IMG/VR virus record: IMGVR_UViG_2775506835_000006
Location: 17,517-81,516 of that record
DNA: 64,000 bases
Direction: 5' to 3' (one strand)
Source of the DNA: a virus
Taxonomy: Duplodnaviria > Caudoviricetes
Of this stretch, positions 19,643 through 61,984 are shown piece by piece. The number at the start of each line of letters is the position of its first letter. Position 1 is the stretch's first letter. The position numbers and the translations under genes were made by a program. The notes below the pieces were generated by a model. It saw only the letters and a program-made list of their open reading frames with translations. It did not search any database and had not been told where the DNA came from.

Positions 19643-19691
19643 ACAATTCTCCTGATCAGCTGTAACAGCCTATCAGGAGAATTGTTTATTT
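19641..19691. terminator. Bidirectional terminator between convergent endonuclease and hsdS
   Basis: AAACAATTCTCCTGAT...ATCAGGAGAATTGTTT inverted repeat. Confidence 0.65.
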
Positions 19692-19813
19692 TACGTTATA
19701 TTGAGTTTTAGTTGCCTTCCGCCCATAATTTCAAGGGTAGCTTCCGTATCCATAATCCACTGGTCTTTTTCTTTGCGCGACACGATCACCGGAATGGGGG
19801 CCAGTTTTCCATT

Positions 19814-22593: not shown

Positions 22594-25500
22594 GCAGTTT
22601 TTCCTCCGTCGTCGTATAGATATTCATTGAGTTCTATTACAATGCTCTCTAATTTATTATGAAACACTTTGTTTATCTTTGAAAAACCGCCCTGCGATTT
22701 GAAACGTCCGTCCTCGTCAAACACAGATATATTTAGAACAGATTCCTCCATTAGGTACTTTTCCATGCGACCAATCCAGCCCATCTCCATTTTGGAAAAA
22801 GAGTGCGATTTTTTTAACCTGTCTACTGCGCGGCGAATGCGGGCTTCGTGGCTTAGAAGTGTGGAACCGATGGCATACCGGCGAATCAAACTGATAATGT
22901 CCGCAGCAATTTCTTCGTTGGTAAGCTCAGAGAGCGCGGTATTCAGCTGCTGGGCAGTAAAGCCCTCCCGGTCTAATGAGAGCCGCAAAGTTTTAAGCGT
23001 GTCCCGTGTCAGCTCCTTAGGGCGGGTGCAGACGATGCTTAAAGCGGCAATCTCGTTCATGTTGTTTTTTACGTAGTCGGCAAACGCATCCAGATAATCT
23101 TCTGGCTTGTTGCCTTTCCCATATCCGCGCTCATGGCTGATGAGGCGGTCTTCTTTGTCGGAAATCACTACGGGGCGGCGGCCATTGGTGTGTATCTCAT
23201 CCAATAGGGCAAAGAGCATGTCACCGTTTAAGAGGTGGGTTTTGGCATCTTCGGGGCTGCGTTCCAGCACGTCACCAATAAACTGTGTTGGGTCAAGCCC
23301 TCCGGACAAATCTATAAAGTGCTCCATTGCCTTTGCGTCCATATCGCGCTTTTTGCGCTGTATCTTGGCAAGTATCTGGTTGATTTGATATTGGACCTGC
23401 TGTGGTTCCTACATCGTTTCCAGACCGTTCAGAAGTTGCTCAAAGGTAGCAGAGGGATTTACGACAACGGGTTTCATAGTATTCAGTTTGTCCAAGTCCT
23501 CATACACGCCCACCGCATCGTAAATCTCGAAATGGGTCTTATGTATATCCGGACAGAGACGGGTGGCACGCCCCAGCATCTGCTCGTACAGGATACGGGA
23601 TTTTACCTTGCGCATAAACACAAGGCTTGTGATTTCCGGCACGTCGATACCGGTCGTCAATAAATCCACCGTCACAGCGATGCTGGGAAATCGTTCATTT
23701 TTAAAACGTTTGATTGCTTCCAGTACCTTTTTCTTGTTGCCGCCGCCCACACTGCCGGTGATTTTCATAATGGCGTCGTTATCGACGCCGCGTTCAGTGT
23801 ATAACTCTTTTAAGATCTTTACAATCAAATCCGCATGCTGGTCGTCCACGGCATAAATCAAGGTTTTACCTTGTTCCGGCGATTCAGGGTCGATATCTTG
23901 GGAAATTTCTTCCAGTATTGCTCGGTTAAACGGCTCGGTGATAACCTGTCGGTTAAATGTTTCTACATCAAACTGTAATTCGTCCTCAAGCGCATCGCTG
24001 TTGGTTATTTCACCTGTTACCGGATCGTAGATGGCCAATGTTTCGCCTTTGGTGTAGTGAATGCCATTTTTACTGAGGTCTGTTCCCAAAAGATGAGGCG
24101 CATCGTGATCCACCAAATAGCCTTCGATGACTGCTTCCCGGTAAGAATAGGTGAATACCGGACGGCCAAAAATCTCCGTTGTGTGCTTGGCAGGAGTTGC
24201 GGTAAGGGCGATCTTGACGGCATCAAAATAGTCAATTACCGTACGGTATTTACTGACATAATCCCGCTGGTCACGATACAAAAGTTCATCTTCACCCATT
24301 TCTTTATCCAATATGTAGCCACGGTGCGCTTCGTCAATGATAATTAGGTCATAATCCGTTACGGCGGGCATGCTTTCTTCATCGTTATACAGGAGGCGCT
24401 TGACCATTCCCTGTACGGTACTTATTTGAACGCGGGTTTCCGGATCTATGGATTTTTCATCCAGACCTTTAATGTTATATATGTCGTCCAGCGTCATCAA
24501 TTCTTCCAGCTTAACTTCTTTGAAAACATCCTGCGCTTGTTCACCCAAGGCAGTTCGGTCGACCAAGAAAAGGATTCGACGGAAACGCCCCGTTTTTAGG
24601 AAACGATAGATCATTCCTAAAATGGTTCTGGTTTTGCCGGTACCGGTTGCCATGGCGAGCAAAGCCGTGTTTTGTCCATCTATAATTGCCTGTTCAACGG
24701 CACGGATTGCCTTTAGCTGGTATTCACGCAAATTCAGTCCGTCTTTATCACGCAATAAATCGTAGGGCGCTGCTTGGAGCGTTTGATTTGCGCTTGCAAT
24801 GTCTTTTTTTAATAGTTCCATCATGCCGGAAGGGCTGATCCAGCCTTGCAACGCTCTGGGGGAATTTGACGGCTGACGCAGATCAAGAAACCATATACCG
24901 GACTTTGTTTCCAACTGCTTCAAATAGGGTCTGCCGTTGGTAGCAAATGTAAAGGGAACTTTGTAAGCTCCCCATGTGCCAATTAGATAATTTGTATCCT
25001 CTTCCCGGATGCAGCGGGGGTAATCCTTGCCTTGATAATCAATGACCGATGGAATGTCCTTGTGTTCGGCTTTGGCTTCAATGATACCCACCAGTTTCGT
25101 GTCAATGAATAAGGCGTAATCGGCAAATCCCTTCGCTCCCAGTTTTGATTTTGTTGGCCACTCGGCAATGGCAAGGTTCCGCCCCTTCGTCGGGCGGGTC
25201 CCCTTGGAATAACGAAGATGGATTGTATCTGCCTCCCAGCCAACTTTCCGCAATTGTTCATCTATTAAATATCTTGTTTCGGCCTCTGATTTTTGCCGCT
25301 GGCTGGCAGCCTTGCTGGCGCGTGCCTTACGATCAGTTTGAGAAACCGACGGGGCAGAAGCCGCTTGCGCTTCGGCTTGTTTTAGCAGCAATTTTTCTTG
25401 CTCGTCTATGGTTTTGGTGTCCGGGAGATTTGTTTCCGGCGCTTGCCGCGGCAACGTAAAAGGCTGATTTTGATAATTCCAATCGCCGTAAGTTTGCATA

Positions 25501-25853
25501 AACCATTCGCAAAGGCTGTGCGCCATTTGCAACAGGGTCTTTCCGTCTTCGATAGACGCATAGTTTTCATGTACCGCACGGTTGCGTGCTTTTCGCAAAG
25601 CGTGAAGAACATCTATGATATCTCGTGTAAGTAAGCCTTCGTTACTTAAACGGTTAATGCGGGCAATGGCTGTATTTTCTGTAGGTAATGATATTTTATC
25701 GTAGGTGAACATAAGGTTTGCAATTGTTTCGCCTACCATTCCCAGCTTCATCAGGCAGGAATTAGGATCTGAATAAAGATAGGCTTCTGCTGTTTTCCCC
25801 AGCTGAGATAAAACTGGAAACTCCTGATCCATAAAGCTGAAATTACTTCCCAT
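22590..25853 (-). pseudogene. hsdR: Type I R-M restriction subunit interrupted by a single in-frame TAG (23409-23411)
   Basis: 'ADYALF..IIEAK', 'ATGTGKT', 'DEAH', 'QMLGRATR'; 22590..23342 continues in the same frame. Confidence 0.85.
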
Positions 25854-26358
25854 CTTTTAATCCTCCTCTAAAAGATTGAATAATCCATTTACTAGCTTTT
25901 AAGTATTGCATGAAATAACCCATATTTTCCCCAACGGGCGGCCCCTGAAATTTTTATGTACTCACGTGAAATCTGAACTTAGCACATAGTAAGTTGCCAT
26001 GGCTCTGTCAGTCCCTTTGCAGTAACATAATCCTAGAGATATCACCATATTCCACCATTTTCTTCATTATAATTCATTAATGCGAGCAATACAAGCAGAG
26101 TATGGAAAAGCTGTCAAAGACAAAACCTCGGTGGCCATTTGTAGCCTCAAGAGATTAATCAAATAGGGTGTTTTCTGCTACCATAAATGTACCGAAAAAC
26201 AATCCGATATCAAGCGATAAATGCGATTTAAAAAAATGATAAAATAATTGCTTATGATAAAAATATTTGGTATAGTTAATACAAAGATTATTTAAAGATT
26301 TACGTTTTAATGAGTAAGCATTTATTAAGTTATCTGGCAGGGAAATCAACAGAATGAG

Positions 26359-29300
26359 GTGGCAATTGTGGGGCAAGGGAAAGAGAATATTTATCTGCGC
26401 ATAGAAATGATGACGGTGGTCAATTATGCACTGCAGCAAAATTCTGTGCCGGTAATCCAGGAAATTAAAATTGAAAACGCTACAAAACAAGACATTACTG
26501 ATGTTACAATTCAGGTACAAAGCAGTCCAGCTATTGTATGTCCTTTTGCTTTAAATATAGCTGCGCTTTCAGCAGGAGAATCTTATTCTATTAGGGAGCC
26601 TTCGCTTGTATTAGACGGCGCGTATTTAGCGGGATTAACAGAGCGTATCAACGTAATATTGCAAATTTTTGTAAAAAAAGAGTCAAATACTTTAGCTTCC
26701 TTTGAAAGGTCTCTGACAGTTCTGGCTTTTGACGAGTGGCCGGGAATAACGGTTCTCCCGGAACTCCTGACTGCATTTATCTTACCAAACCATTCGGAAG
26801 TAGTACAAATAAATGCGAAAGCGGCAAAATTTTTGGAACAGTGGAGTGGAGATCCTTCCTTAGATGCATATCAGTCTCGCGACCCCAACCGAGCCCGGTT
26901 GCAGGCAGCCGCCATATACGGTGCTTTGCAGGCGCAAAATATTGTATATTCGGTTCCGCCAGCCAGTTTTGAAGCAATTGGCCAACGTATACGATTATGC
27001 GATGCTGTTATGCAGCAAAAGATGGGGACCTGTATGGACTTAACGTTACTCTATGCCGCCTGTTTGGAGGCCGCTGGATTGCATCCGTTGCTTCTATTGC
27101 AGCCGGGCCATATTTTTGCAGGCGTATGGTTGGAGGACTTAACGTTTCCGGAGGCAATACAGGATGATCCTTCTCTAATAACAAAGCGTTTGGCGGACGG
27201 TGTCAACGAAATTGCTGTTGTGGAATGTACCGCGTTTACAGCTGGCAAAGGGTTAAGCTTTGAACAGGCATCTTCTGCTGCGGAACAGAAACTGACGGGA
27301 GGGTCGTTGGACTGCCTGATTGATGTTTTTCGTGCAAGATTAAGTGGAATTCACCCTCTACCTTTGCGCGTTTTGGATGGAAATCAATGGACGATTGCTC
27401 GTGATGAAGTAGATATTGAAAAGATTACAAAGGCTCCTGCGTCAAAGATCGAAACCGTTCGCGTTTTGGAAGGCCATCCAGAGAATGCTGGAAAAATGGC
27501 GCAGTGGGAACGAAAATTGCTTGACTTAGGAATGCGGAATACATTGCTAAATCTCCGTCTTACGCGAACGGTTATTCCAATTCTGTCTCCGTCTCTCCGC
27601 GATTTAGTGGAGGCACTGGTGGATCGAGGCGAATTTGGTATTGCGTCGCGTCCGGATGAATGGTCTGTCCGTGAGGAAGATCAAAAGGATCCGGAAAAGC
27701 TCGTGTGTACAAGCAATATACATCATTTAATTAAGTGTGAATTTCATAATATGCGATTGCGTACGTCTCTCAGCGAAGGGGAATTGGCCCGGTCTGTCAT
27801 CCATTTATACCGTTCCGCTAGAACCGCTTTGGAGGAAAACGGGGCAAATACGCTGTATTTAGCCATAGGTTTGCTGCGATGGTATGAAACGAAAACAAGT
27901 CAAACAGCGAGATATGCGCCGGTCGTGTTGTTGCCAGTGGAGATTGTCCGGAAATCTGCCTTGAAAGGCTATGTAATCCGCTCCCGAAGTGATGAGGAAC
28001 CACAGATAAACGTTACACTTTTGGAGAAGCTCAAACAAGATTTTGAAATTACCATTAGCGGGTTGGACCCATTGCCGCAGGATGAAAACGGCTTAGATAT
28101 TCGGCTTATTTTGGTCAGGATGCGTAGGGCAATTATGGATCAACGCGGATGGGATGTTCTGGAAACAGCAGTTCTTGGAGTTTTCTCTTTTTCCCAGTTT
28201 GTAATGTGGAATGATATACGTAATCGTGCGGAAGATTTGCAAAAAAATAGACTTGTGCGCAGTTTAATGGATGGAAAACTGGCGTGGATGCCACCGGCAA
28301 TGCAATTGGGAGCATGCGTTCCGGAAGAAGGTGTTTTGTTGCCTATTCCAGCGGATGCATCCCAGCTTTATGCTATCGAAGCGGCGGCCCGTGGAGAGAG
28401 TTTTGTATTGCATGGCCCGCCAGGCACAGGCAAATCCCAGACAATTACGGCCATGATAGCCAATGCGGTTGCACAGGGTAAGACGGTTCTTTTTGTTGCA
28501 GAAAAAATGGCGGCTCTATCGGTTGTACAGCGCCGGTTAGAAGAAATAGGCATTGGACCGTTTTGCTTGGAATTACATTCTAATAAGTCTCAAAAGCATG
28601 CTGTATTGGAGCAACTGCGTATGGCAACAGAAATCGCCAATCGAAATGAATCCGCGAACTATAAAGAACAAGCGGAGCAAGCAGCGCAAATGCGTAAGGA
28701 GTTGGATGCGTACGCGCGTTCTCTACATCAAAAGAGAGCGTCGGGCCTATCTCTTTTTGAGATGATCAGTGGCTATGAAAAATGCCGGCTTGCGCCGGAT
28801 ACCGTTCATTTCTCCGATGAATTTGCCTTTTCAGCTAATTGCTCTGTGTTGGCTAAGTATAAACTGTTGATTGGTCAGCTTATCGCTGCTGGCAAGGCGA
28901 TTGGACATCCATATGGAAACCCGTTGCGTTTGATTCCTTTATCCGTTTATACGCAGCAGTTGCACTTCGGTTTGCCTAACGCGCTGATTTCTTACCGATC
29001 TGCTTTAGAGCAGCTTGAAGAGGCAGGGACGCAGTTTTCAGAAGCTTTGGATCGGAAGGTACCGGATAGTTTGGAAGAGTGGAAACAACTTTATCAGATA
29101 GCCGAAGCGTTAATGAAATGGATTTTCATTCCAAGAGCTTGGGCAAAGGATGAAACCTTTTCTTATTCCATGCAGAAGATGAGAGAAATGTCACGGCATT
29201 ACCAAAAGGCACGCGAACTTTCCGATGATTTAAACGGTTCGTGGAACAAAGAGTTTTTAAAACAAGATGGCGAAGCTTTACTTACACAATGGCGGCAAAT

Positions 29301-32151
29301 TTCTAGTCAATGGTTTTTAACAAAGGCGTTAGGTCAAAACAAAATAGAGAGTCAACTTTCGCCGTTTGCCCGCAGAATTGTAAATAAAACGTTGTTGGAA
29401 CGGGACCTAGAACGATTGGTCAATTATCAAAAGGAGCAGTCTGCTGCCAATGAGTTGTTTACGTTCTATAAAGAGTATTTGGAGCCAGTTTTTAAGGGCG
29501 AAGATACGGACTGGAAACAACTCGAAACACAAATTGAACAGGCATTGCACGATGCGTCTGAGTTAGCTGAATTGACTGGTGGAGAGGAAATGCGTCTCCG
29601 TTTTGCTGCCCGAAAAGAACTTCAGGGCACAATCGGGCAAATGATAGAATCTTATTCTGTTATGCAAGACGCCAAATCCTCGCTGTACTCCCTGCTGGAG
29701 GTATATGACGGAGAATGGGGGCCAGCTGATTGGTTACATGGGCAATTGCAATTTTGTAATCAGATGGAAAAACATATTGAGATGCTGCGTGATTGGATTT
29801 TATGGAATCGCACCTGCCAGGAAATAGAAAAAGAGGGACTTGGACCGTTGGTGAGAGCTTATGAAAATGGGCTGGAACATGAAAATGTTGAAAGTGCTTG
29901 TTTTCGAGGCATTTATAAAGCGTTAATTGAGCATACCATTGACGAGGATCCTGCACTGTTGCGGTTTTCCGGCGCGATGTTCAATGAAAAGATTCAGCAA
30001 TTTAAACAAATGGATCAAAAATTGCAGAAATTGGCGAAGGTTGAAATATACAACCAATTGACAGCCAAGATGCCTCATTTTGAGCTGGAGGCAGTGCAAA
30101 GTTCGGAAGTGGGTATACTGCAAAGAGCCATTCGCAGTGGTGGCCGAGGAATCAGTATCCGACGGTTGTTTGAACAAATTCCTGAACTTTTGACTAGATT
30201 GTGTCCCTGCATGCTTATGAGTCCTATTTCAGCGGCGCAATACTTGAATCCGAAATGTAAGCCTTTTGATATTGTGGTGTTTGACGAAGCTTCTCAAATG
30301 CCAACTTGCAAAGCAGTAGGAGCGATCGCCAGGGGGAAGAGTGCGGTGATTGTGGGTGATCCCAAACAGATGCCACCGACCAGTTTTTTCTCCGGCAATA
30401 CAGTAGATGAAGATAATTTACAGCAAGAAGATTTGGAAAGCATTCTGGATGATTGCCTGGCGATCCAATTGCCGCAGGCGTATTTGCTCTGGCACTATCG
30501 AAGCCATCATGAAAGCCTGATCTCTTTTAGTAATAGTCAATTTTATGAGAACAAACTTTATACGTTTCCATCGGCGGATGATTTGGCATCCAAAGTTTCG
30601 TTAGTGCATGTAGAAGGCTTTTTTGATCGGGGAAAAACAAGACAAAATAAAGCAGAAGCGAAAGCGGTCATCCATGAGTTACAAAGGCGTTGCCACAATC
30701 CAGTTTTTGCAAACCAGAGTGTGGGCGTTGTAACGTTTAATATAACACAACAGAGTCTGATCGAAGATCTTTTGACAGATGCTTGTAAAGAAGATGCGGA
30801 TTTAGAAGATTGGGCATACAACCGGCCTGAGCCACTGTTTATAAAAAATCTGGAGAATGTACAGGGTGATGAGCGGGACGTTGTATTGTTTTCTGTGGGA
30901 TATGGTCCTGATGAGCAAGGCCGTATTACTATGAATTTTGGACCGCTCAATCGGGACGGCGGTTGGTGCAGGTTAAACGTAGCTGTTTCCCGAGCGCGGG
31001 AAGAAATGATAGTGTTTTCTACTATCACTGCGGAGCAGATCAATTTATCCAGGTGCGGCGGGGCAGGTGTAGCTGCCTTAAAAGCATTTTTAAGGTATGC
31101 CAACGGTGAGCGAATCGCGGAACAAAAAGAGACAGGACAGGAGCATACGATTCGTAATGGGATTGCGGACATGCTTTGTTGTAAGCTGACCGATGAGGGA
31201 TATGAAACCCGGACAATGATTGGCCGTTCCGACTTTCGGATAGATGTAGGTGTTGTGGATCCAAGTCAGCCGAAACAATATTTGCTGGGTATTTTGTTAG
31301 ACGGCCCTATGTACGGCGCAGCTAAAACAACGCGTGACCGTGAAATTGCTCGAGCGGATGTATTAAAAAAGCTGGGGTGGGAGCTTCATCGCATTTGGTC
31401 AATAGATTGGTGGATCAACAGTCAAAAAGAATTTGATCGTTTACTGGAACATATAAAGCAAACCGTTGAGAGTCGTAAAAAGCTCCAAGCGGATCCAGAG
31501 TACAACCTGTCCGTTAAATCAAGTAAGCGCTTGGTGGCAGATAGCTGCGCGCAGTATGCACCATGTGTCCAGGAATCATGTATTTTACTTTATGAAGCCG
31601 CCTCGTTGGCGAAAGAGACGCTCTCTTCCGACGCTTTTTTATTGCCGCAGTATGATAATCGAATTAAAGAGGCGTTTGAACAAGTCCTGAGTGTAGAGGC
31701 TCCTATTAGAGAAAGTTTACTAATCCGGCGCGTTCTGCAAAGTTTTGGATTTGGAAGGACTGGCGCCCGGCTGCAGGAACGGGCAGAGATTTTGTTGAAG
31801 CAGATGGGTCTTTCCTATACAATGCAGCGAGGCGAAAAATTTTACTGGCGCAATGACCAGAACCCCGATACATATTCAGAATTCCGTCAATCTGGTATAG
31901 GAAATCACAAGCGAGACGCGCAGGATCTACCTGTAGAAGAAGTGTCGAATGCGGTTTGCAGGGTTTTGCAGGATAAGGTTGGTCTGCAAAAAGAGGACCT
32001 TATTCGTGAAACTGCAAGGCTGCTAGGCTATGCGAGATCGGGTAATGTTGTCGTTGAAGTTGTGACCTACGGAATAAAACATGCCTTAAAGACAAGTAAA
32101 ATACTTGTAGACGACACAGCCCATTTGTATAACTTAAAACAAAATAGATAA
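26359..32151 (+). CDS. DUF4011 / SF1 helicase / Vsr-like nuclease / DUF3320 protein (Hhe-type anti-phage architecture)
   Basis: 'WERKLLDL..RN.LLN', 'GPPGTGKSQT', 'FDEASQ', 'GDPKQMPP', 'ENVQGDERD', 'RLNVAVSRAR', 'LGWELHRIWS'. Confidence 0.85.
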   Translation: MAIVGQGKENIYLRIEMMTVVNYALQQNSVPVIQEIKIENATKQDITDVTIQVQSSPAIVCPFALNIAALSAGESYSIREPSLVLDGAYLAGLTERINVILQIFVKKESNTLASFERSLTVLAFDEWPGITVLPELLTAFILPNHSEVVQINAKAAKFLEQWSGDPSLDAYQSRDPNRARLQAAAIYGALQAQNIVYSVPPASFEAIGQRIRLCDAVMQQKMGTCMDLTLLYAACLEAAGLHPLLLLQPGHIFAGVWLEDLTFPEAIQDDPSLITKRLADGVNEIAVVECTAFTAGKGLSFEQASSAAEQKLTGGSLDCLIDVFRARLSGIHPLPLRVLDGNQWTIARDEVDIEKITKAPASKIETVRVLEGHPENAGKMAQWERKLLDLGMRNTLLNLRLTRTVIPILSPSLRDLVEALVDRGEFGIASRPDEWSVREEDQKDPEKLVCTSNIHHLIKCEFHNMRLRTSLSEGELARSVIHLYRSARTALEENGANTLYLAIGLLRWYETKTSQTARYAPVVLLPVEIVRKSALKGYVIRSRSDEEPQINVTLLEKLKQDFEITISGLDPLPQDENGLDIRLILVRMRRAIMDQRGWDVLETAVLGVFSFSQFVMWNDIRNRAEDLQKNRLVRSLMDGKLAWMPPAMQLGACVPEEGVLLPIPADASQLYAIEAAARGESFVLHGPPGTGKSQTITAMIANAVAQGKTVLFVAEKMAALSVVQRRLEEIGIGPFCLELHSNKSQKHAVLEQLRMATEIANRNESANYKEQAEQAAQMRKELDAYARSLHQKRASGLSLFEMISGYEKCRLAPDTVHFSDEFAFSANCSVLAKYKLLIGQLIAAGKAIGHPYGNPLRLIPLSVYTQQLHFGLPNALISYRSALEQLEEAGTQFSEALDRKVPDSLEEWKQLYQIAEALMKWIFIPRAWAKDETFSYSMQKMREMSRHYQKARELSDDLNGSWNKEFLKQDGEALLTQWRQISSQWFLTKALGQNKIESQLSPFARRIVNKTLLERDLERLVNYQKEQSAANELFTFYKEYLEPVFKGEDTDWKQLETQIEQALHDASELAELTGGEEMRLRFAARKELQGTIGQMIESYSVMQDAKSSLYSLLEVYDGEWGPADWLHGQLQFCNQMEKHIEMLRDWILWNRTCQEIEKEGLGPLVRAYENGLEHENVESACFRGIYKALIEHTIDEDPALLRFSGAMFNEKIQQFKQMDQKLQKLAKVEIYNQLTAKMPHFELEAVQSSEVGILQRAIRSGGRGISIRRLFEQIPELLTRLCPCMLMSPISAAQYLNPKCKPFDIVVFDEASQMPTCKAVGAIARGKSAVIVGDPKQMPPTSFFSGNTVDEDNLQQEDLESILDDCLAIQLPQAYLLWHYRSHHESLISFSNSQFYENKLYTFPSADDLASKVSLVHVEGFFDRGKTRQNKAEAKAVIHELQRRCHNPVFANQSVGVVTFNITQQSLIEDLLTDACKEDADLEDWAYNRPEPLFIKNLENVQGDERDVVLFSVGYGPDEQGRITMNFGPLNRDGGWCRLNVAVSRAREEMIVFSTITAEQINLSRCGGAGVAALKAFLRYANGERIAEQKETGQEHTIRNGIADMLCCKLTDEGYETRTMIGRSDFRIDVGVVDPSQPKQYLLGILLDGPMYGAAKTTRDREIARADVLKKLGWELHRIWSIDWWINSQKEFDRLLEHIKQTVESRKKLQADPEYNLSVKSSKRLVADSCAQYAPCVQESCILLYEAASLAKETLSSDAFLLPQYDNRIKEAFEQVLSVEAPIRESLLIRRVLQSFGFGRTGARLQERAEILLKQMGLSYTMQRGEKFYWRNDQNPDTYSEFRQSGIGNHKRDAQDLPVEEVSNAVCRVLQDKVGLQKEDLIRETARLLGYARSGNVVVEVVTYGIKHALKTSKILVDDTAHLYNLKQNR

Positions 32152-32229: not shown

Positions 32230-32332
32230 CTAAGGAAGTAAGCCGGTCAACTGGCACAAGGATTCAAATCCCTTTACCCTCCGACAAAAGCCGCATGGTT
32301 AAGCCGTTTTCGGACAACCATGCGACTTTTTT
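32230..32332 (+). repeat. Degenerate tRNA-Ser 3' fragment plus terminator (relict att site)
   Basis: Diverged copy of 32657-32759 including the GCCGCATGGTT...AACCATGCG hairpin. Confidence 0.7.
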
Positions 32333-32650
32333 ATTGCTTTCAGGCAGGTTCAACAAAAACAGCGCGAAGCTATCCGGAAATGGATAGTTGCGCCACGATT
32401 GACAGATTCCAGTTTCGGGTGCAAAATATTTTATAATGTAAAGAAAATCTAATCGAACTCATCTAAAATATCGAGGAGTTCAGAACCATGCAGTGATGGG
32501 GAGAAGATCGTCGGGAAGCTTCTGAGCGAGTGTAATGGCAAAAATAAAAGCGCAGCTATTCATTGCGGACGGCTGTATTAAAATTTTAGCCATTCCCACT
32601 CTATTCCCACTTTATGTTCAAAGTATTGCATAAAGCCACAAAATAAATCA

Positions 32651-32712
32651 CCCCTGCTAAGGGAGTAGGTCGGGCAACTGGCGCAAGGGTTCAAATCCCT
32701 TCTTCTCCGCCA
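32651..32712 (+). tRNA. tRNA-Ser(GCT) 3' fragment from anticodon arm to CCA; att site, not an intact tRNA
   Basis: CCCCT-GCT-AAGGGAG, long variable arm, GGGTTCAAATCCC T-arm, TTCTCCGCCA end; acceptor 5' strand and D arm absent. Confidence 0.85.
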
Positions 32713-32760
32713 AAAGCCGCATGGTTAAGCCGTTTTTCGGACAACCATGCGGCTTTTTTG
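32713..32760. terminator. Terminator between att site and integrase 3' end
   Basis: AAAGCCGCATGGTT...AACCATGCGGCTTTTTT. Confidence 0.75.
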
Positions 32761-32836
32761 TTATGCAAAAGTACGCGGTTTGTGGCACTGCCGCGTGCAA
32801 AAAATGAAGCTATTACACACCTATTACACACAGGAT

Positions 32837-33951
32837 TTAAAGCTGATCCACAGCTTTTAAGAGTTCTTCCAAAGGAGTATGAATGTAGTTCTCGTAGGTG
32901 GTTTCAAAATCAGCGTGCCCGCCCGCTTCTGCAATCACCGCTGGGGCAATGGTGCTCTTGCTTGCGAGGCGCGTGAAATAGGTATGCCGGCAAGTGTAGG
33001 GAACAAGGTGCCGGACGCCTACACGCTCTACAGTCTCCCAATAGGCAGCATAGAAATTGTCTTCATTCATTTCAAGTAGCTTGCGGCGTCGGGAATGCAT
33101 GAGTTCCCGGATGATGGGGACGATCTTTGTGGCGATCGGGATTCTTCGGTTTGTGCCTGCTTCGGTTTTGTTTCCTCCGATCATATACCGTTCATCCAGA
33201 TAAATGTTTTTTAAAAGGATGTCGAAGAGTTCTCCCGGGCGCATACCGGTATATAGAAGAATCAGTATGTATCCGGTAAAAGGGTGCAGCCTCTGGCCGA
33301 TGTCGTTGAGCTCATTAAAGTCTTTCCAAAAACGCTGCACTTCCAGATCGTCAAACGCTTCTCGCTGTTTCTTTTTTAACTCAGGAAGTTCCAGATTCTC
33401 TGTTTTATTATAGGTGCAGATTTCTTTTTTCATCGCCAGTTTGTACAGGTGCGAAAGCATGTCTCGCATATCCCTGGCGGGGTAATAGGTATTCGTCATT
33501 CTATTGATAACGGTTTGCATATCATCCACACCGGTTTCGGAAATTGGCTTCCGATGCAGGGCGGCCAGTCGCTTCCAGGCATACCCAAGCTTGTCCTTCT
33601 GCGATTTGCTGAGCTTTTGGTATTTGCGCGATTCCAGAAACTCGTTGTGCAATTGTTCAAAGGTGATACCTGCTTTGTCGCTTGTGCCCGCCAAAGTAGG
33701 GAGGTAGTCCACCGCATCCTTTTTCCTTTCAAAGGTTTTGGTGGCCTTCTTCCGATGAAGATTTCCGTCGTCTCCTATGTAGTAGTAAAGCGTGACTTCG
33801 GCAACGTACTTCTTACCGCGCTGATATACGGTTCCGGTACCGTTCCCCCTGGACTTAGGTTTGCGCTCCCTGGCAGCGAGACCCCGCAGTAAAGGCAATA
33901 TGCAGAACTGTCGGGAATCTCCTTTCCGCATTTTTTGTTTTTACAAATCAC
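32837..33951 (-). CDS. int: Tyrosine integrase; N-terminal zinc ribbon appears to be in a different frame (probable frameshift near 33870-33885)
   Basis: 'YTGMRPGEL', 'KTEAG', 'YTCRHT', 'GH', 'YIH'; AAGGAGG RBS precedes GTG at 33951. Confidence 0.85.
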
Positions 33952-36648: not shown

Positions 36649-36870
36649 GTGAACAAAGACAGTCCATACATAAAGCACAGCCGTCTGGGCGTGATCTTGT
36701 TTGTTACCGGCCTGATCGGGGCCTTCCTCACAGCCATGGCGTCGGACAGCGGAATGCTGACCGTCTACCAAGTGTTGATTATGACAACGGCAGAGAGTTT
36801 GGCTATGGGGATTGGCGGGTTGCTGCGTGATAAAGATTCACAGAATGGAGGTCGAGAAAAACAAAAATGA
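36649..36870 (+). CDS. Small two-TM membrane protein
   Basis: AAGGAG RBS, two hydrophobic segments. Confidence 0.55.
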   Translation: MNKDSPYIKHSRLGVILFVTGLIGAFLTAMASDSGMLTVYQVLIMTTAESLAMGIGGLLRDKDSQNGGREKQK

Positions 36871-37982
36871 AAAGCTGTATGGAGAGAATGAAGGAGAATC
36901 ACACAGACGAGAAAATCGCTTCGTTTCGGGTAAAACAGAAACTACCGTATGAAGCAAAAATAAACTATGCATACACACGCGCATGGGAGTTCTACAACGA
37001 GTGTGGCAAGCGAGGACTGAACTGTCATGTATCCGTAGGTGGTCTGGACAGCATTACTTTGCTGTTGTTTTTGCGGTCCATTGGGATAGATGTTCCAGCG
37101 GTTTCGGTATCGACCCTGGAGGACAAGAGCATTCAGGCCATACATAAAACATTGGGAATCATTTCACTGAAACCTTTAAAGAGCAAAACACAAGTTCTGC
37201 AGGAATGTGGGTTCCCGGTACTGTCTAAAGAAACGGCGTCGAAGATCGAGCTGCTACAGAATCCATCTCCAAAGAATGCCACAGTCCGGCATGCAATCAT
37301 CACAGGAGAAACCGGAGCATACGGAGGAAACCGGACAGGCACCCGGATGAAGATGGCTCAGAAATGGCTGGAACTGTTTGCAGGAGGTGAAAATGAACGG
37401 GAGGATGTGCAATATCAATGTGCGCCGTTTAAAGTATCCGCCAAGTGTTGCTATTACCTCAAAGAGAAGCCATGTGATGACTGGGCGAAAGAACACAACA
37501 GTGTACCGTATCTGGGTCTCATGGCGTCCGAAGGAGGTCGCCGCCAAAAGTCGCTCATGATGAATGGATGCAACTACTTTGGAAAGACAGCGATACGGTC
37601 AGCGCCATTTGCGATATTTGACCGCCAAGATCTGTTGCAGCTTGCCCTTGACCTGGATGTACCTGTTCCAGAGGTATACGGCACCATAGAATGCCAAGCA
37701 GATGGCACGCTTTACACAACAAGAGCACAGAGGACAGGCTGCTCCATGTGCGGGTTTGGAATCCAGCTCGAAAAGAGACCGCATCGATTTGACCGGCTCT
37801 ACGAAGACAACCCGAAAGAATGGAATTTTTGGATGCACCGATGTGTGAAAGATCCAGTTACAAATGAAGTATATGGGTGGGGTAGGGTGCTGGACTACAT
37901 AGGGGTACATTGGACACAGGGATCATTACAAACAGATCTGGACTTGCAAGCAGGGAAAACTGCCAGCAGAAAGAAAGGATGA
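36867..37982 (+). CDS. PAPS-reductase-like (PP-loop, Fe-S) phage protein
   Basis: 'SVGGLDS' PP-loop, 'KCCYYLKEKP', 'RTGCSMCGFG'. Confidence 0.8.
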   Translation: MKSCMERMKENHTDEKIASFRVKQKLPYEAKINYAYTRAWEFYNECGKRGLNCHVSVGGLDSITLLLFLRSIGIDVPAVSVSTLEDKSIQAIHKTLGIISLKPLKSKTQVLQECGFPVLSKETASKIELLQNPSPKNATVRHAIITGETGAYGGNRTGTRMKMAQKWLELFAGGENEREDVQYQCAPFKVSAKCCYYLKEKPCDDWAKEHNSVPYLGLMASEGGRRQKSLMMNGCNYFGKTAIRSAPFAIFDRQDLLQLALDLDVPVPEVYGTIECQADGTLYTTRAQRTGCSMCGFGIQLEKRPHRFDRLYEDNPKEWNFWMHRCVKDPVTNEVYGWGRVLDYIGVHWTQGSLQTDLDLQAGKTASRKKG

Positions 37983-39616: not shown

Positions 39617-40420
39617 GTGTACCTGAAGAAGACCTGTAAAGCTGGAATCACTATAGAAGTACACAAGAGCTATTCCGCCCGGTACGGCCGAAACATCCCA
39701 AGGGGAAAAAGAGAAAGCCGCACACCGGAGGCGATGAAAAAATACAACGAGAAGATGGCGTGGAGAAAGCTCACCCGGCAGATCAACGCGAACTTTGTTC
39801 CCGGGGATCTATTCCTGACCTGCACCTACCGGAAGGAGGTGCGTCCGGATCCACAGCGGGCGAAGCAAAATATAGAGAATTTCCTGGACCGTGTACGTAG
39901 GCGTTTCAAAAAGGCAGGGGTGGAGTTTAAATACATTCTGGTGACAGCCTATGGAAAGCAGGGCGGGATCCATCATCACGTGATCATTCCTGCATTTGAT
40001 TATCAGGTTGTTACAGCATGTTGGCCGCACGGAGCTATGCGGTTTGAGGCCCTGTATCCAGATGGCGAATACTCCGCCCTTGCCTGGTATCTTATCAAAC
40101 AATCCCGCCTGTCCCCAGATGGAAGGGAATCCATTCCCGGGAATCGATGGTCCGGAAGCCGGAATCTTATCAAGCCGGTGGAGAAGGTGCAGGAGGTAGA
40201 CGCCAGGGAGTGGCGCGAGGAACCGAAACCTGTTAAAGGCTATTACATAGATCCGAATTCTGTAGAGAATGGGATTTCGCCGGTCACGGGGATTCCATAT
40301 CAGTTCTACAGGATGATTCAAATACAGTCATTACAAAAGGAAAGAGAAAGTTTAACAAATACAAAGCGATCCAAGGGAGAGAAACTAAAAGATAAACGAA
40401 GTAAAGGACATTCTAAATAG
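39617..40420 (+). CDS. HUH-superfamily rolling-circle replication initiator-like protein
   Basis: Motif I 'FLTCTY', motif II 'IHHHVII', motif III 'YLIKQ', 'RWSGSRNL'; GGAGG RBS. Confidence 0.75.
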   Translation: MYLKKTCKAGITIEVHKSYSARYGRNIPRGKRESRTPEAMKKYNEKMAWRKLTRQINANFVPGDLFLTCTYRKEVRPDPQRAKQNIENFLDRVRRRFKKAGVEFKYILVTAYGKQGGIHHHVIIPAFDYQVVTACWPHGAMRFEALYPDGEYSALAWYLIKQSRLSPDGRESIPGNRWSGSRNLIKPVEKVQEVDAREWREEPKPVKGYYIDPNSVENGISPVTGIPYQFYRMIQIQSLQKERESLTNTKRSKGEKLKDKRSKGHSK

Positions 40421-40688
40421 AATTAAAAGTAAAATCAACCGGTCGTAAGTGTTTAAAGTACAGCGGCTTAAAGAGCAAAAGTCACGTGCGTTGAGCTTTT
40501 TCTAACGAGCATATAGATAAAGTGCGAATCGCAAGCTCACATAGATTTCTTAAGAGATTCGCACCTCGCATAGTTACTGGATTTTTTGCATTTTAATTCT
40601 CATACAGGGGAATTGTTTTCTCATTTTTATGGGATTCGCATTTTAGGCCTTTACAACCCGCATGGTTACTGGGTATAATAGGGGTGCA
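40421..40688 (+). promoter_or_regulatory. CRISPR leader with promoter
   Basis: AT-rich; inverted repeat GTGCGAATC (40522-40530) / GATTCGCAC (40556-40564); TTTACA (40650)-N18-TATAAT (40674) just before repeat 1. Confidence 0.75.
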
Positions 40689-41056
40689 GTCAAAATCCAC
40701 GCCCCGTAAGGGGACGGAAACCCCCTGCTTCCCGATGCGGTAAATCCCGAAGTCGTGTCAAAATCCACGCCCCGTAAGGGGACGGAAACAGCTCTTTCTA
40801 CATCCAACTGATAAGTTTCATAGGTCAAAATCCACGCCCCGTAAGGGGACGGAAACGGCTGACCGCCAAGCCGCACCAGTAAAATGCGCGTCTAAATCCA
40901 CGCCCCGTAAGGGGACGGAAACATTCCAAAGCTGCTTTAGCTTTGTAGGATTACCGGTCTAAATCCACGCCCCGTAAGGGGACGGAAACCCGCCCTGAAT
41001 ATCATTCGTCCCATAAAAGATGGGTCTAAATCCACGCCCCGTAAGGGGACAAAAAG
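40689..41056 (+). CRISPR. CRISPR mini-array, 6 repeats and 5 spacers, no cas genes in window
   Basis: 33-nt repeat GTC(A/T)AAATCCACGCCCCGTAAGGGGACGGAAAC at 40689, 40757, 40824, 40890, 40957 and 41024 (last degenerate at its 3' end); unique spacers of 35, 34, 33, 34, 34 nt. Confidence 0.97.
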
Positions 41057-41097
41057 AAGCGCCCATTCCGGAAACTTGCCGGAATGGGCGCTTTGTT
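41057..41097 (+). terminator. Terminator closing the CRISPR transcript
   Basis: Perfect 15-bp stem AAGCGCCCATTCCGG / CCGGAATGGGCGCTT then TGTT. Confidence 0.7.
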
Positions 41098-41769: not shown

Positions 41770-41976
41770 TTGAATTACAAAGAAACGATAGCAGAATGTG
41801 AGGCCGAAATAGCCGTTATTGACGCAAAGCTTGCCCAGATCAGAACCAGCAACAATTGGCTGGAGAACGCCCGATACAATCAGCTCTCTTGTATGCGCGG
41901 GGACCTGTGTCTGCAGCTCCACGCGGCACGGATCGCAGCGAGCAGGGGCCGGCCACCGGATGGAGGTGATCCGTAA
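41770..41976 (+). CDS. Hypothetical protein
   Basis: AAAGGAGG RBS, TTG start, overlaps terminase start. Confidence 0.55.
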   Translation: MNYKETIAECEAEIAVIDAKLAQIRTSNNWLENARYNQLSCMRGDLCLQLHAARIAASRGRPPDGGDP

Positions 41977-42497
41977 TGGCATTAAAAGCAAAACAAAAAC
42001 GATTCGTTGAAGAATACCTTGTTGATTTAAATGCAACGCAGGCGGCAATCCGCGCCGGATATTCTCCGGAATCTGCTGGATCAATCGGGAGTGAAAACCT
42101 GCATAAACCTGAAATCCGCACGCGTATAGACAAGGCTATGGCCGAACGCTCGAAACGGACCGGAATCAACGCCGACCGTGTCCTTATGGAATTGGGTAAG
42201 ATTGCCTTCATCAATGCCACCGACGTGATCAATATGGATGATGCGACAATCTTGTCTGAAGCCAATCGCGACGACACAGCCGCAATTGCATCCGTGAAAG
42301 TCAAGACCATACCCGGAGAAGATGGAGATGGTGTCGAACGGGAAATCCGCTTGGCTGATAAACTAAAAGCTTTGGAATTGCTGGGTAAACATTTGGGCCT
42401 CTTTACCGATAAGGTAGAAGTGAAAGGGCAGATCGACACCGGGCAGAAAAAGCTTGAGGACATTTTAAGCCAGCTGCGAGGGGATTCCGGTGAATGA
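41976..42497 (+). CDS. terS: Terminase small subunit
   Basis: 'KQKRFVEEYLVDLNATQAAIRAGYS', 'DKLKALELLGKHLGLF'. Confidence 0.95.
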   Translation: MALKAKQKRFVEEYLVDLNATQAAIRAGYSPESAGSIGSENLHKPEIRTRIDKAMAERSKRTGINADRVLMELGKIAFINATDVINMDDATILSEANRDDTAAIASVKVKTIPGEDGDGVEREIRLADKLKALELLGKHLGLFTDKVEVKGQIDTGQKKLEDILSQLRGDSGE

Positions 42498-43854
42498 GCG
42501 CCTGATACTTTCAGAAAAGTATAAAGCCTTTCTCCGGTGCCGGGCACCGTATGAGTTCCTGGAGGGGACCACGGCCGCCGGCAAAACCACGGTGGGGCTG
42601 TTCAAATTCATGCTTCGCGTTGCGGAAAGCCCGAAGAAAATACATATCCTTTCCGGCCTTGACCTTGGCACAATCGAGAAGAACATTATCAACAAAGACC
42701 TGGGGATTCTTGACGACTTCGGCCCGCTGGTGGAATACAATGCGTCCGGCCGCGGACAGAATTCCTTGCCGCATTTGCTTTTCCATGCGCCGTCAGAGGA
42801 CAAAATCGTTTACGTGCTTGGCTACGATAACAAGGCCCGCTGGAAAAAGGCTCTGGGCGGACAGTACGGGTGCCTGTACATTGATGAGATCAATATTGCA
42901 GACATGGAATTCGTCCGTGAAGCGTCTATGCGTTGCGACTACCTGTTGGCCACGCTCAACCCGGATAATCCGGATCTTCCTATCTACTCGGAATACATCA
43001 ACCATGCCCGTCCTTTGCCGGAGTGGGAAAACGAGACACCAAAAGAAATATTGTCGATGCTCAACGAAAAACCAAAGCCAGGCTGGGTGCATTGGTTCTT
43101 TTCTTTTGAACATAATCTCGGGTTGCCAGCGGAAAAGGTGCAGCAGATCAGGGACAGCGTCCCGAAGGGTACAAAGCTTTATAAAAACAAAATTCAGGGC
43201 CTGCGCGGCCGCGCAACAGGGCTGGTGTTCAACTTGCAGCCGCATAATCTGGTTTCCGCCAAGTGGCTTCTGGAACAGATGCAGAGCAATCAAATTAAAT
43301 TTCTGCAAGTGTCTGCAGGCGTAGATACATCGTATTCGCAGCAGTCAGCCGATACATTTGCATTCGTGTTTTCCGGTATTACGACCGACAGGCGGAAGAT
43401 CACGCTGGCCACGGAGGTACACAACAACCGGGGTCTAACAACGCCGCTGGCGCCCAGCGATATACCACCTCTGCTGATCACGTTCTTGGAGAAGTATCGC
43501 ACCATCTTTGATCTGTTCGCCCGCAGCGTCTTCATCGATTCCGCGGATGAGGCCACGATCATTGAATGCCAGAAATACAAACGTCTGCACGGAAGCGTCT
43601 ATGAGTTTTGCCCGGCCTGGAAGAAGACAAAAATCATTGACCGTATCAATTTACAGTCCGGCTGGCTGGCGAGCGGGGATTATCTCCTTGTAACAGAATA
43701 TTGCAGAGCGGAGATTGATGAACTGAATGCATATAGCTGGAAGGAAGACAAAGACAATGAGCCGGAGGACGGCAACGACCATACGATCAACGCAGACCAG
43801 TACAGCTGGCTGCCGTACAAAGGCAGGATAGGGGGCAAGGTGATGGTTACTTGA
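42490..43854 (+). CDS. terL: Terminase large subunit
   Basis: Walker A 'GTTAAGKT', Walker B 'YIDE', 'TLNP', nuclease 'GVD' and 'DGNDHTINA..Y'. Confidence 0.92.
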   Translation: MNERLILSEKYKAFLRCRAPYEFLEGTTAAGKTTVGLFKFMLRVAESPKKIHILSGLDLGTIEKNIINKDLGILDDFGPLVEYNASGRGQNSLPHLLFHAPSEDKIVYVLGYDNKARWKKALGGQYGCLYIDEINIADMEFVREASMRCDYLLATLNPDNPDLPIYSEYINHARPLPEWENETPKEILSMLNEKPKPGWVHWFFSFEHNLGLPAEKVQQIRDSVPKGTKLYKNKIQGLRGRATGLVFNLQPHNLVSAKWLLEQMQSNQIKFLQVSAGVDTSYSQQSADTFAFVFSGITTDRRKITLATEVHNNRGLTTPLAPSDIPPLLITFLEKYRTIFDLFARSVFIDSADEATIIECQKYKRLHGSVYEFCPAWKKTKIIDRINLQSGWLASGDYLLVTEYCRAEIDELNAYSWKEDKDNEPEDGNDHTINADQYSWLPYKGRIGGKVMVT

Positions 43855-45326
43855 AATTGAGGGAGAAGGTGAAAGATATGCTGCGCAATTGGCTGCAAAT
43901 CCAGCCCGCAACGCCGAACGGGATCGTAATCCAGGAGCCCTTGGATTTTCAGGCGTCGGTGATACGCAATCAAATTTGGTATCGCGGGGAGGCTGCGGAG
44001 CTGGAGCAGCTCTACAAGCAGCTTGGAGCGCAGGACAGTACGAACGCATCCCGGTTTTGGGCTGCCGTGCCCGCCAACGCGATGAAACTGCGCAAAATTC
44101 ATTCCGGCCTGCCCGCGATCCTGGTAGACACACTGGCGTATTTGGTCAAGTCGGATATGGATGATGTAGCTTTTAAAGACAACTGCGGGGAAGCAGAGTG
44201 GAAGGCGATCACAGAAGAACTGGATTTTCAAGATACCGTTGGACAGGGTGTCGCCGGCGCGCTGAAAGCAGCGGACGGGGCCTGGAAAATATCCATAGAT
44301 ATAACCGTATCTCAGTACCCGATCGTCGAGTTTTATGAAGCGGACCGCGTGGAATACATCCAAAGCCGCGGGCGTGTAATAGGTGTGAAATTTTGGTCGG
44401 ACCATTCAGACGGCTATAAGGTGTACCGGCTATGTGAGGAATACGGGAAGGGGTATGTTTCGTACGCCCTGTATGACGGGACCAGTGAAGTCCCGCTCGA
44501 CCGCATACCGGAGCTGGCGGAATTGAAACCGGTTGCTTTTGATGGGGACTTCATGATGGCGGTGCCGTTCAAAGTCTTTGAGAGCGCCAAATTCCCAGGC
44601 CGCGGAAAAGCTCTGTATGAAAGCAAACTGGACAGCTTTGACGCGCTGGATGAAGTCATCAGCCAATGGTGGGACGCCATGCGCGCGGGCCGGGTGAAAA
44701 AGTATATCCCACGCGACCTGTTGCCGGTAGACCCCAAAACAGGAAATCTGTTGCCGCTGAATGATTTTGGCAGCGAGTACATCACTACGGAATCGCTGAC
44801 GGATGAAAACGGCGTGAGTAGAATCGATACCATACAGCCGGAAATCCGGTATGAAGCGTTTCTGTCTTCCTATACGGCCGCGCTGGACATGTGCCTGCAG
44901 GGGGTTGTTTCCCCGGCCACTCTGGGCATTGACGTTGGTAAGATGAGCAGCGCGGAGGCCCAGCGGGAAAAAAAGGATGTCACAGGGTATACGCGCAATA
45001 CCATAACCGGAGTTCTGGAAAAAGTGCTGCCGCAGCTGGTGTCGACGATCCTGATGGTCAACGATCTTATGCAGGGACGCGCCCCGGGAAACTACGAGCC
45101 ATCTGTGGGCTTTGGCGAATATGGCGCACCGTCTTTTGATAGCCGGGTGGAGACAGTCAACAGGGCCGCCGCCGCCAATACCATGAGCATAGAAACACAG
45201 GTGGATGAGCTGTGGGGGAACAGTAAAGACGACGGATGGAAGACCGGTGAAGTTGCCCGCATCAAGCAACTGCGCGGGATCGAGACGGTAGATGGACCGC
45301 CCGCGGTGGGGGATGAGCTGGCATGA
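43851..45326 (+). CDS. Portal protein (A118-like)
   Basis: 491 aa after TerL; 'SPATLGID', 'AQREKK'. Confidence 0.8.
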   Translation: MKLREKVKDMLRNWLQIQPATPNGIVIQEPLDFQASVIRNQIWYRGEAAELEQLYKQLGAQDSTNASRFWAAVPANAMKLRKIHSGLPAILVDTLAYLVKSDMDDVAFKDNCGEAEWKAITEELDFQDTVGQGVAGALKAADGAWKISIDITVSQYPIVEFYEADRVEYIQSRGRVIGVKFWSDHSDGYKVYRLCEEYGKGYVSYALYDGTSEVPLDRIPELAELKPVAFDGDFMMAVPFKVFESAKFPGRGKALYESKLDSFDALDEVISQWWDAMRAGRVKKYIPRDLLPVDPKTGNLLPLNDFGSEYITTESLTDENGVSRIDTIQPEIRYEAFLSSYTAALDMCLQGVVSPATLGIDVGKMSSAEAQREKKDVTGYTRNTITGVLEKVLPQLVSTILMVNDLMQGRAPGNYEPSVGFGEYGAPSFDSRVETVNRAAAANTMSIETQVDELWGNSKDDGWKTGEVARIKQLRGIETVDGPPAVGDELA

Positions 45327-61931: not shown

Positions 61932-61984
61932 AAACAAAGCCCTGCTTCTCACGAGGCAGGGCGATTTTCTGTATGGAGGGACAC

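Follow-up and report, generated by a model that had tools for sequence, protein, structure and literature searches.

The window analyzed here is a stretch of 64,000 nucleotides (nt) from a virus record of IMG/VR (Duplodnaviria; Caudoviricetes; IMGVR_UViG_2775506835_000006, positions 17,517 to 81,516), and it contains genes of two prophages that reside in the same bacterial genome, here called prophage 1 and prophage 2. Prophage 2 carries a CRISPR array at 40689-41056 on the + strand, in which five spacers of 33-35 nt separate six 33-nt repeats (GTCAAAATCC...GGGGACGGAAAC). The fifth spacer (spacer 5; 40990-41023, +) is antisense to a conserved motif of genes that encode SGNH hydrolase domains, including the SGNH gene of prophage 2 itself. 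A complete type III-A effector operon lies just outside the window, and the relationship among the phage-borne array, this host system, and the SGNH genes is described below.

A CRISPR array between the replication and packaging genes of prophage 2

The left end of prophage 2 (32651-33931, no strand assigned) is formed by an attachment site, attL, and an integrase gene. In attL (32651-32723), 73 nt from the 3' part of tRNA-Ser(GCU) are duplicated exactly; the intact tRNA gene is found 17.7 kb upstream of the window. The tyrosine integrase is encoded on the - strand at 32837-33931, and early genes fill the space between it and a Rep gene of the ORF2/G2P type (39617-40420, +), which was recognized by Pfam and lies directly upstream of the array leader. 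On the 3' side, the array is followed by a phrog_11237 gene, by the genes for the small terminase (TerS), the large terminase (TerL), and the portal protein (41976-45326, +; assigned by PHROGs), and by further + strand open reading frames (ORFs), with the SGNH gene as the last. Because attL, the integrase, and Rep lie to the left and the packaging and late genes to the right, the five-spacer array sits within prophage 2, between Rep and the packaging genes. No cas gene was found among the subset of prophage 2 ORFs that was scanned.

The Rep gene is shared with three sibling prophages of the carrier genome at 86-95% nt identity. As the array repeat was not found in any of these three siblings, the array, present in one of the four Rep-sharing prophages, fills a variable slot. 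The junction of Rep, leader, and repeat also exists in a diverged relative, since a 463-nt contig from the independent run X1 extends from the 3' end of Rep across the leader to the first repeat and shows 10 differences (about 2%). A 161-nt contig from run X2 has the repeat between two other spacers and could stem from a host array.

The leader of the array (40522-40688, +) was delineated by its homology to both leaders of the host type III-A locus and by a promoter scan, which detected a sigma-70-like promoter (TTTACA-18-TATAAT) at 40650-40679 with 11 of 12 matching positions. The repeat folds into a short hairpin, CCCC-GUAA-GGGG, followed by the 8-nt ACGGAAAC at its 3' end. In type III systems, the 8-nt repeat stretch on the 3' side of the hairpin forms the 5' tag of the CRISPR RNA (crRNA). 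Two repeat variants occur in polar order within the array: repeats 4-6 start with GTCTAAAT, and the final repeat is degenerate, leaving five of the six intact. Matches to Rfam CRISPR-DR families were weak and confined to the + strand. A 15-bp hairpin directly 3' of the array (41057-41093, no strand assigned) was scored as a terminator on the - strand by the scan; its + strand tail is T-poor, and the array transcript presumably ends there. Collectively, the leader, the promoter, the polarity of the repeats, the degenerate last repeat, and the ACGGAAAC end after the hairpin indicate that the array is read on the + strand, so that guide 5 is antisense to the SGNH messenger RNA (mRNA), as type III targeting needs. 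Being distal to the leader, spacer 5 is presumably the oldest spacer of the array.

Among the remaining spacers, spacer 2 (40790-40823, +) showed weak antisense matches to TerL genes from unrelated phages. Seven phage records were retrieved by blastn with 84-89% identity over 32-37 nt (E values of 1e-3 to 0.6), and all six annotated matches fall within TerL. The resemblance is to a conserved stretch of this gene in phages of Rhodococcus and Faecalibacterium; in the Faecalibacterium phage FP_oengus, the TerL coding sequence lies on the strand opposite to spacer 2. No counterpart of spacer 2 with at least 70% identity was found in the carrier genome. The resemblance to terminases is a second, weaker hint of anti-phage content, and both spacers with any identifiable target (spacers 5 and 2) are antisense to the coding strand. 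A candidate target of spacer 1 in an ORF resembling formate-tetrahydrofolate ligase (26/35) was isolated and in the non-coding sense, and it was taken as a chance match.

The host type III-A locus adjacent to prophage 2

The type III-A operon (L001 2796-9948, equal to G000:C11:511795-518947) begins with cas10 (csm1), 398 bases past the end of the window, and contains csm2-5, cas6, and, as the last gene, a gene for a NucC-type nuclease. The products scored above the NCBIfam cut-offs for Cas10/Csm1 (490 bits), Csm3 (199), Csm4 (207), Csm5 (101), and Csm2 (54), while Cas6 scored above its Pfam cut-off and below its NCBIfam cut-off. Cas10 has a GGDD motif at residue 528, and no HD dipeptide was found in its residues 1-120; the NCBIfam Csm1 alignment begins at profile position 62. 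The 246-aa protein at the end of the operon matches NucC with an E value of 1.7e-72 over positions 3-239 of the 244-position profile. With a GGDD motif, no HD motif found, and a NucC homologue, the locus has the sequence features of NucC-coupled type III signaling.

The operon is flanked downstream by a 12-spacer array and upstream by an orphan leader with a lone degenerate repeat, all on the same contig as the phage array. The phage repeat differs at 1 of 33 bases from the repeat of the 12-spacer array and at 1 to 3 bases from the lone repeat, and its hairpin and tag-forming 3' ends are identical to those of the host repeat. Similarly, the three leaders align over ~190 nt with 73-77% identity and share the TTTACA-18-TATAAT promoter, which ends a few bases before the first repeat; the phage leader is 77% identical to the orphan leader over 202 nt and 73% identical to the leader of the main array when repeats are included. 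The claim of the earlier note, made from the window sequence, that the crRNA would pair with mRNA in a manner compatible with type III targeting is thus borne out by the strand of the array and by a complete III-A operon with Cas6 next to it. None of the 12 spacers of the host array matches prophage 2 at 70% identity or above.

The last gene of prophage 2 abuts the csm-nucC side, with no attR found between them. The terminator of the prophage 2 SGNH gene is fused directly to the lone degenerate repeat (L001 2399-2700, just past 64000), and the full leader of this repeat points back toward prophage 2. Other prophages of the same family have at this place ~100 nt and a tRNA-Ser attachment (att) copy. 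A deletion or rearrangement at the junction of prophage 2 and the CRISPR locus is likely because no attR was found. A 13-14-nt att match inside the orphan leader was regarded as chance and was not accepted as attR. On reasoning alone, the layout is also not explained by an inversion or by Campbell-type recombination of the phage array with the host arrays, which would leave direct repeats or inverted late genes, and neither was seen. The csm locus was not found in either of the two congeneric genomes searched. While tRNA-Ser and the transfer-messenger RNA (tmRNA) gene are ~90 kb apart in the carrier genome, they are separated by 5.5 kb in the congener G173, whose intervening genes, for an extracytoplasmic function (ECF) sigma factor and a DUF4367 protein, were of no help in placing the prophage boundary.

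Two peculiarities of the host main array (L001 10136-10977) were also observed. Two adjacent spacers are identical, and the five leader-nearest repeats end in GGAAGT, not GGAAAC, which would alter the crRNA tag of the newest guides.

SGNH genes matched by spacer 5

In frame 3, the reverse complement of spacer 5 translates to IFYGTNDIQG, a motif that we take to be SGNH block III (GxND, with the oxyanion-hole Asn). Within the window, it aligns ungapped to two + strand sites, with 26/34 identities at 18467-18500 in prophage 1 and 27/34 at 63585-63618 in prophage 2, as the earlier note had described. No other window site on either strand reaches 22/34; when the spacer was shuffled 300 times, the best window match was 19-24/34, and 24 was reached once. 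Both sites lie in SGNH genes on the + strand. The gene of prophage 1 (16852-18882) is located downstream of an endolysin gene (15560-16327), whereas that of prophage 2 (61928-64000) is the last gene of the prophage and follows the lysis genes. The C-terminal part of each product is a GDSL/SGNH esterase domain that exceeds the curated Pfam cut-off for Lipase_GDSL_2 of 32.9 bits (60.5 bits in prophage 1 and 65.3 bits in prophage 2), and Lipase_GDSL is also above its cut-off in both. FGDS, FGTND, and DGTHPN can be read in the SGNH translation of this predicted hydrolase and correspond to blocks I (GDS), III (GxND), and V (DxxH). The earlier note spoke of a host-range cassette; the one indication of this is a weak lead in the Atlas (score 0.87), which points to baseplate or fibre proteins of the BppU type, and the N-terminal 445 aa of the prophage 2 protein may be fibre- or baseplate-like.

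The two genes of the window are neither the only nor the best matches. The genome is heavily lysogenized, and a tblastn search with 23 prophage 2 proteins located SGNH homologues at 11 places, eight of which retain the motif and belong to elements that are mostly prophage-like. Spacer 5 matches these eight copies at 30, 28, 27, 26, 26, 25, 24, and 24 of 34 positions and is antisense to the coding strand in every case. The best match (30/34) lies outside the window, in the co-resident element at C11:20777-22795. Every good match thus falls in an SGNH gene, and homologues of lysis or tail genes adjoin seven of the eight copies, the eighth (C11:650841) having only a weak neighbor. A best protospacer in a non-SGNH or non-phage sequence, which the earlier note had named as grounds for refutation, was accordingly not observed. 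By eye, the crRNA tag is not complementary to the sequences 3' of the targets, with pairing at 2 of 8 positions. Among the 46 spacers of seven arrays in the genome, only spacer 5 has multiple strong partial self-matches.

Distribution of mismatches along the guide

Every sixth guide position is left unpaired in type III complexes. We therefore numbered guide positions from the tag and counted as effective only those mismatches that lie outside the every-sixth unpaired positions. Position 6 is described as unpaired in a type III complex (PMC8682760). The C11:20777 copy (30/34) is mismatched at positions 9, 18, 21, and 25, of which 18 is unpaired, leaving 3 effective mismatches. Likewise, the C12:173021 copy (28/34) is mismatched at positions 6, 9, 12, 18, 21, and 30, of which only 9 and 21 are effective (2 effective mismatches). 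The carrier's own copy in prophage 2 (27/34) has mismatches at positions 3, 6, 21, 25, 27, 29, and 30, and 5 of them remain effective after positions 6 and 30 are set aside; the prophage 1 copy (26/34) has mismatches at positions 3, 15, 18, 21, 25, 27, 29, and 30, and 6 of them are effective, 18 and 30 being unpaired. Only the carrier and prophage 1 copies have a mismatch inside guide positions 1-5, while the other six copies pair perfectly there. This shared position-3 change, from GGC to GGA, is synonymous (Gly). In agreement with the earlier note, mismatches fall mostly at third codon positions, with fractions by copy of 3/4, 6/6, 5/7 (prophage 2), 6/8 (prophage 1), 7/8, 5/9, 7/10, and 6/10.

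A basis for interpreting the position-3 mismatch is provided by VmeCmr, a type III-B complex coupled to NucC. For this complex, a mismatch at +1 or +3 is reported to have almost abolished signaling by the Cas10 cyclase in vitro, whereas a mismatch at position 6 was without effect and signaling withstood mismatches outside segment 1; by the rules of that report, positions 1-5 are critical (PMC8682760). The authors of that report state that this behavior agrees with the III-A complexes of Staphylococcus epidermidis and Lactobacillus delbrueckii (PMC8682760), and tag-proximal mismatches are described as weakening S. epidermidis III-A immunity the most (bioRxiv 10.1101/369744). On the assumption that the mismatch rules of VmeCmr would carry over to the present Csm complex, the pattern appears to fit a self-exemption of the carrier without proving it.

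Search for a protospacer

The earlier note had called for a near-perfect protospacer in related phages, and none was found in any collection searched, the nearest sequence being the co-resident 30/34 copy. The proposal that a third phage donated the spacer is, as a result, still an inference. The exact 34-mer had no match in viral, genome, or metagenome contig collections. When the ten codon third positions were replaced by N, the pattern had no match in metagenome and genome contigs and matched one locus in viral contigs (L002), which is identical to the 28/34 sequence of the C12:173403 copy. None of 400 other genomes of the family matched spacer 5 with up to 3 mismatches, and when 50,697 phage records were searched by blastn with the leader and array as query, nothing matched spacer 5 at E values up to 1. 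Similarly, the 25-nt core of the repeat had no match in viral contigs.

Scanning IMG/VR with the closest SGNH protein yielded four loci of 100, 90, 75, and 54% identity under one IMG genome id, which are apparently prophages of the same strain. A protein search gave 35 SGNH homologues, and the exact peptide TIFYGTNDIQGG is present in three of them: the carrier's own P0011 and the external proteins P0003 and P0007.

A possible role of the array in competition among related phages

Overall, these observations suggest that the array probably, although by no means certainly, provides a phage-borne guide against related phages that borrows the Csm-NucC system of the host. Spacer 5 would have come from an unsampled member of the SGNH gene family, and the array transcript would be processed by host Cas6 and loaded into the host Csm complex. 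Once an SGNH gene with a close enough match is transcribed by a relative that superinfects or has been induced, Cas10 would make cyclic oligoadenylate, which in turn would lead NucC to cut DNA, so that the infection or induction of the relative would be aborted. The resident SGNH copies would be tolerated as long as their late genes are silent, and the carrier's copy would be less prone to trigger the response by virtue of its synonymous position-3 mismatch and four effective distal mismatches.

A bolder form of this proposal, which we consider rather improbable, is that one guide vetoes many rivals: it would be directed at a late gene common to at least eight prophage-like elements, the carrier and its closest sibling would be exempt through position 3, and Csm-NucC would kill the cell. 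The codon register of the guide places half of the wobble positions on the every-sixth nucleotides that Csm leaves unpaired, and three of the six other SGNH copies have 2-4 effective mismatches. With wobble falling on unpaired positions, a single old spacer could therefore still "see" several diverged rivals. If so, the carrier could abort any cell with an induced or superinfecting rival, and prophage competition would become programmed cell death.

Several observations weigh against a working guide of either kind. Production of crRNA from the array and its loading into Csm are predictions. No perfect or near-perfect protospacer was found, so an active target is hypothetical, and spacer 5, as the leader-distal and presumably oldest spacer, may simply have decayed. 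The position-3 mismatch counts as one event and not as a statistical pattern because the two copies that share it are near-identical locally (31/34, by eye), and the coincidence of unpaired positions with third codon positions had a 1 in 3 chance of arising. Single point mutations are reported to hardly affect S. epidermidis III-A immunity in vivo, which tolerates many mismatches and where escape needs a deletion (bioRxiv 10.1101/369744); by this standard, the carrier's own SGNH gene could be recognizable. The target site is conserved, yet when 1398 windows of the gene were ranked by how well the eight copies agree, it came 186th, and the idea that spacer 5 strikes the most conserved stretch of the SGNH gene was dropped as unsupported. 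Moreover, no cas1-cas2 pair was found at the csm locus, the sole Cas1 in the genome being the type I-C Cas1c on contig C12. Finally, a search for further tRNA-Ser att copies found no attR to the right of prophage 2, which may be grounded or may hold the csm-nucC locus as its cargo.

These points are also compatible with the array being a neutral relic, an explanation that we regard as unlikely and yet deserving of serious weight. Here, the array would have come from the host III-A locus, spacer 5 would be an old memory, and its matches would reflect homology at a conserved motif with no present effect. No copy exceeds 30/34 and no external protospacer was found in the collections searched; spacer 5 is the furthest from the leader, the mismatches follow ordinary synonymous drift, only one of four Rep-sharing prophages has the array, and prophage 2 has no attR that could be found. 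A relic, however, would not be expected to retain a near-consensus promoter in its leader, five of six repeats intact, and a hairpin and tag-forming ends the same as those of the host repeat. The Rep-leader-repeat junction is kept in the relative that is ~2% diverged, the polar repeat variants suggest that the array grew after the mutation arose, and type III systems tolerate 2-3 effective mismatches, as present in two co-resident copies. Alternatively, the guide could tune the resident genes at the RNA level, with Csm3 cutting the SGNH mRNAs while Cas10 stays off because the tag-proximal end is too poorly paired, such that the expression of the carrier's and its neighbor's own gene is lowered without an immune response. 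Guide positions 7-20 pair perfectly with the carrier copy, whose mismatches are at 3, 6, and 21-30; in S. epidermidis Csm, mismatches are reported to have blocked RNA cleavage only in the mismatched segment (bioRxiv 10.1101/369744), and tag-proximal mismatches are described as suppressing Cas10 (PMC8682760; bioRxiv 10.1101/369744). Nevertheless, such tuning is very unlikely in our estimation, as lowering a late virion gene has no apparent benefit, plain divergence gives the same pattern, and the six other copies that are fully paired at positions 1-5 would trigger Cas10.

RNA anti-CRISPRs made of solitary repeats are known, and the array might act as such a decoy, with abundant repeat RNA soaking up Cas6 and Csm and diluting the host guides, so that the identity of the spacers would be secondary. 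The near identity of the repeat to that of the host, the strong promoter, and the position just after a replication gene, where copy number would rise with replication, are all in keeping with a decoy. In our estimation, a decoy is still less probable than tuning. The element is a full array, in which a leader precedes five spacers of normal length and the repeat variants are polar, and two of its spacers resemble phage genes in the antisense sense that type III needs. The decoy is further weakened by the absence of a visible host guide to dilute, because none of the 12 host spacers matches prophage 2 at 70% identity or above. The least probable explanation of all is that the array is read on the - strand and guides DNA cleavage by a type I-C system, for which the mRNA strand would be irrelevant. 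On the bottom strand, the hairpin is followed by GTGGATTTTGAC, which is near the ...GGATTGAAAT ends of the I-C-like arrays of the genome; the spacer lengths are alike, and contig C12 has a complete operon (Cas3, Cas5c, Cas8c, Cas7c, Cas4, and Cas1c). The protospacer-adjacent motif of type I-C is TTC, whereas the bases 5' of the site are (G/T/C)(G/T/C)A in 8 of 8 copies and never TTC. In addition, the promoter-bearing leader lies upstream on the + strand with the degenerate repeat at the far end, it is the csm operon, and not the I-C operon, that is flanked by the same repeat and leader, and the weak Rfam repeat matches are on the + strand only.

If the guide works against relatives as we propose, the array would be a clear bacterial case of a temperate phage turning the RNA-sensing type III system and NucC of its host on its relatives. 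The strain is also a natural test bed, since the array, its effector operon, and eight graded targets (24-30/34) that include the self copy come together in one genome; from it could be learned which mismatches, and how many, separate "rival" from "self" for type III in vivo and whether prophages that share a host police one another's induction. If the guide is inactive, the array is an ordinary record of past phage-phage contact.

Comparison with known virus-borne arrays and type III systems

Prophages of Clostridioides difficile carry cas-less arrays that use the host system and have spacers against other phages. Those arrays are of type I-B, which targets DNA and has no mRNA-sense requirement, whereas the present array is of type III. 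A closer parallel is found in the mini-arrays of the Sulfolobus viruses SPV1 and SPV2, which are described as having host-like leaders, no cas genes, and spacers against close relatives, with the virus's own orthologous site mutated (Medvedeva et al. 2019, PMC6858448). Virus-borne mini-arrays were modeled by Iranzo et al. (2020) and are said there to occur in bacterial viruses too (PMC7099407). Virus-borne mini-arrays against relatives are thus already known, and the present array adds a case. Like the arrays described for SPV1 and SPV2 (PMC6858448), it lies in a viral genome with a promoter-bearing, host-like leader and repeats of the host system, close relatives carry genes to which its spacers are related, and the orthologous site of the carrier is point-mutated (27/34, including position 3). 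Unlike them, the present carrier is a bacterial temperate phage, the array has five spacers and not the one or two of the working definition of a mini-array (PMC6858448), and its repeat and leader are of the kind found at a type III-A locus that has NucC as an effector. While the SPV1 and SPV2 spacers are described as mutual 100% matches, the best match here is 30/34 with no perfectly matched rival known, and the related genes are found in seven other resident elements of the same genome.

The csm-nucC locus can be compared with the VmeCmr/NucC system (Grueschow et al. 2021, PMC8682760), which is likewise described as having a Cas10 without the HD motif, an adjacent NucC, and a prophage-associated locus. 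However, VmeCmr is a type III-B (Cmr) system that is phage-encoded as a whole according to that report, whereas the present system is type III-A (Csm) and the array is the only part that the phage clearly carries, while the adjoining csm-nucC locus may or may not belong to it. The co-residence of spacer 5 with near-matching prophages may have a parallel as well. Goldberg and colleagues are said to have shown in 2014 that type III-A systems tolerate prophages conditionally, depending on transcription. Conditional prophage tolerance by type III-A is also the subject of a later report (Goldberg et al. 2018, PMC5754349). Under such tolerance, guides against late genes spare a silent prophage and act upon its transcription, which would explain how near-matching prophages can reside together with a spacer 5 guide. 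In those cases, the spacer is in a host array and matches perfectly, whereas here it is in a prophage, matches at 24-30/34, and any tolerance is inferred.

Other features of the window and the genome

The genome contains further arrays. Directly after the SGNH gene of the best-matching element, L005 8942-11237 (G000:C11:22941-25236) encodes a 509-aa TnpB-family protein with weak matches to Cas12f/Cas12u4 (E ~1e-13). Its gene precedes an array that has 8 spacers and an unusual repeat of 33 nt, and the two together might form a compact system of type V at the end of a prophage. Five more arrays are type I-C-like with varied repeats (L017 6264-6498; L018 5914-6410; L019 5419-5649; L020 5871-6439; L025 8874-9035). 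One I-C-like array of three spacers adjoins a phage Rha regulator gene, and only the small L025 array adjoins the complete I-C cas operon. None of the 29 spacers in five scanned arrays (four I-C-like arrays and the odd-repeat array of L005, with the two spacers of L025 left out) has more than one partial self-match.

Between the prophage 1 SGNH gene and the next att copy, the window holds defense cargo (18908-32151) that consists of a nuclease resembling Mrr, a restriction-modification system of type I (S, M, and R), and a 1930-aa protein matching the PADLOC candidate PDC-S37 and Hhe. At 32230-32723, the 3' part of tRNA-Ser(GCU) then occurs twice in direct orientation, once decayed (87.5%) and once exact, with a remnant of the 3' end of an SGNH gene between the copies (32494-32556). 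Together, the tRNA-Ser copies and the SGNH remnant record repeated integrations at tRNA-Ser(GCU). Among the early genes of prophage 2, a gene resembling phosphoadenosine phosphosulfate (PAPS) reductase (phrog_424; 36867-37982) encodes a protein that recurs at five other locations of the genome, with 100% identity at four of them and 94% at the fifth, whereas its neighboring genes are only 42-95% identical, suggesting a recent exchange among the resident prophages.

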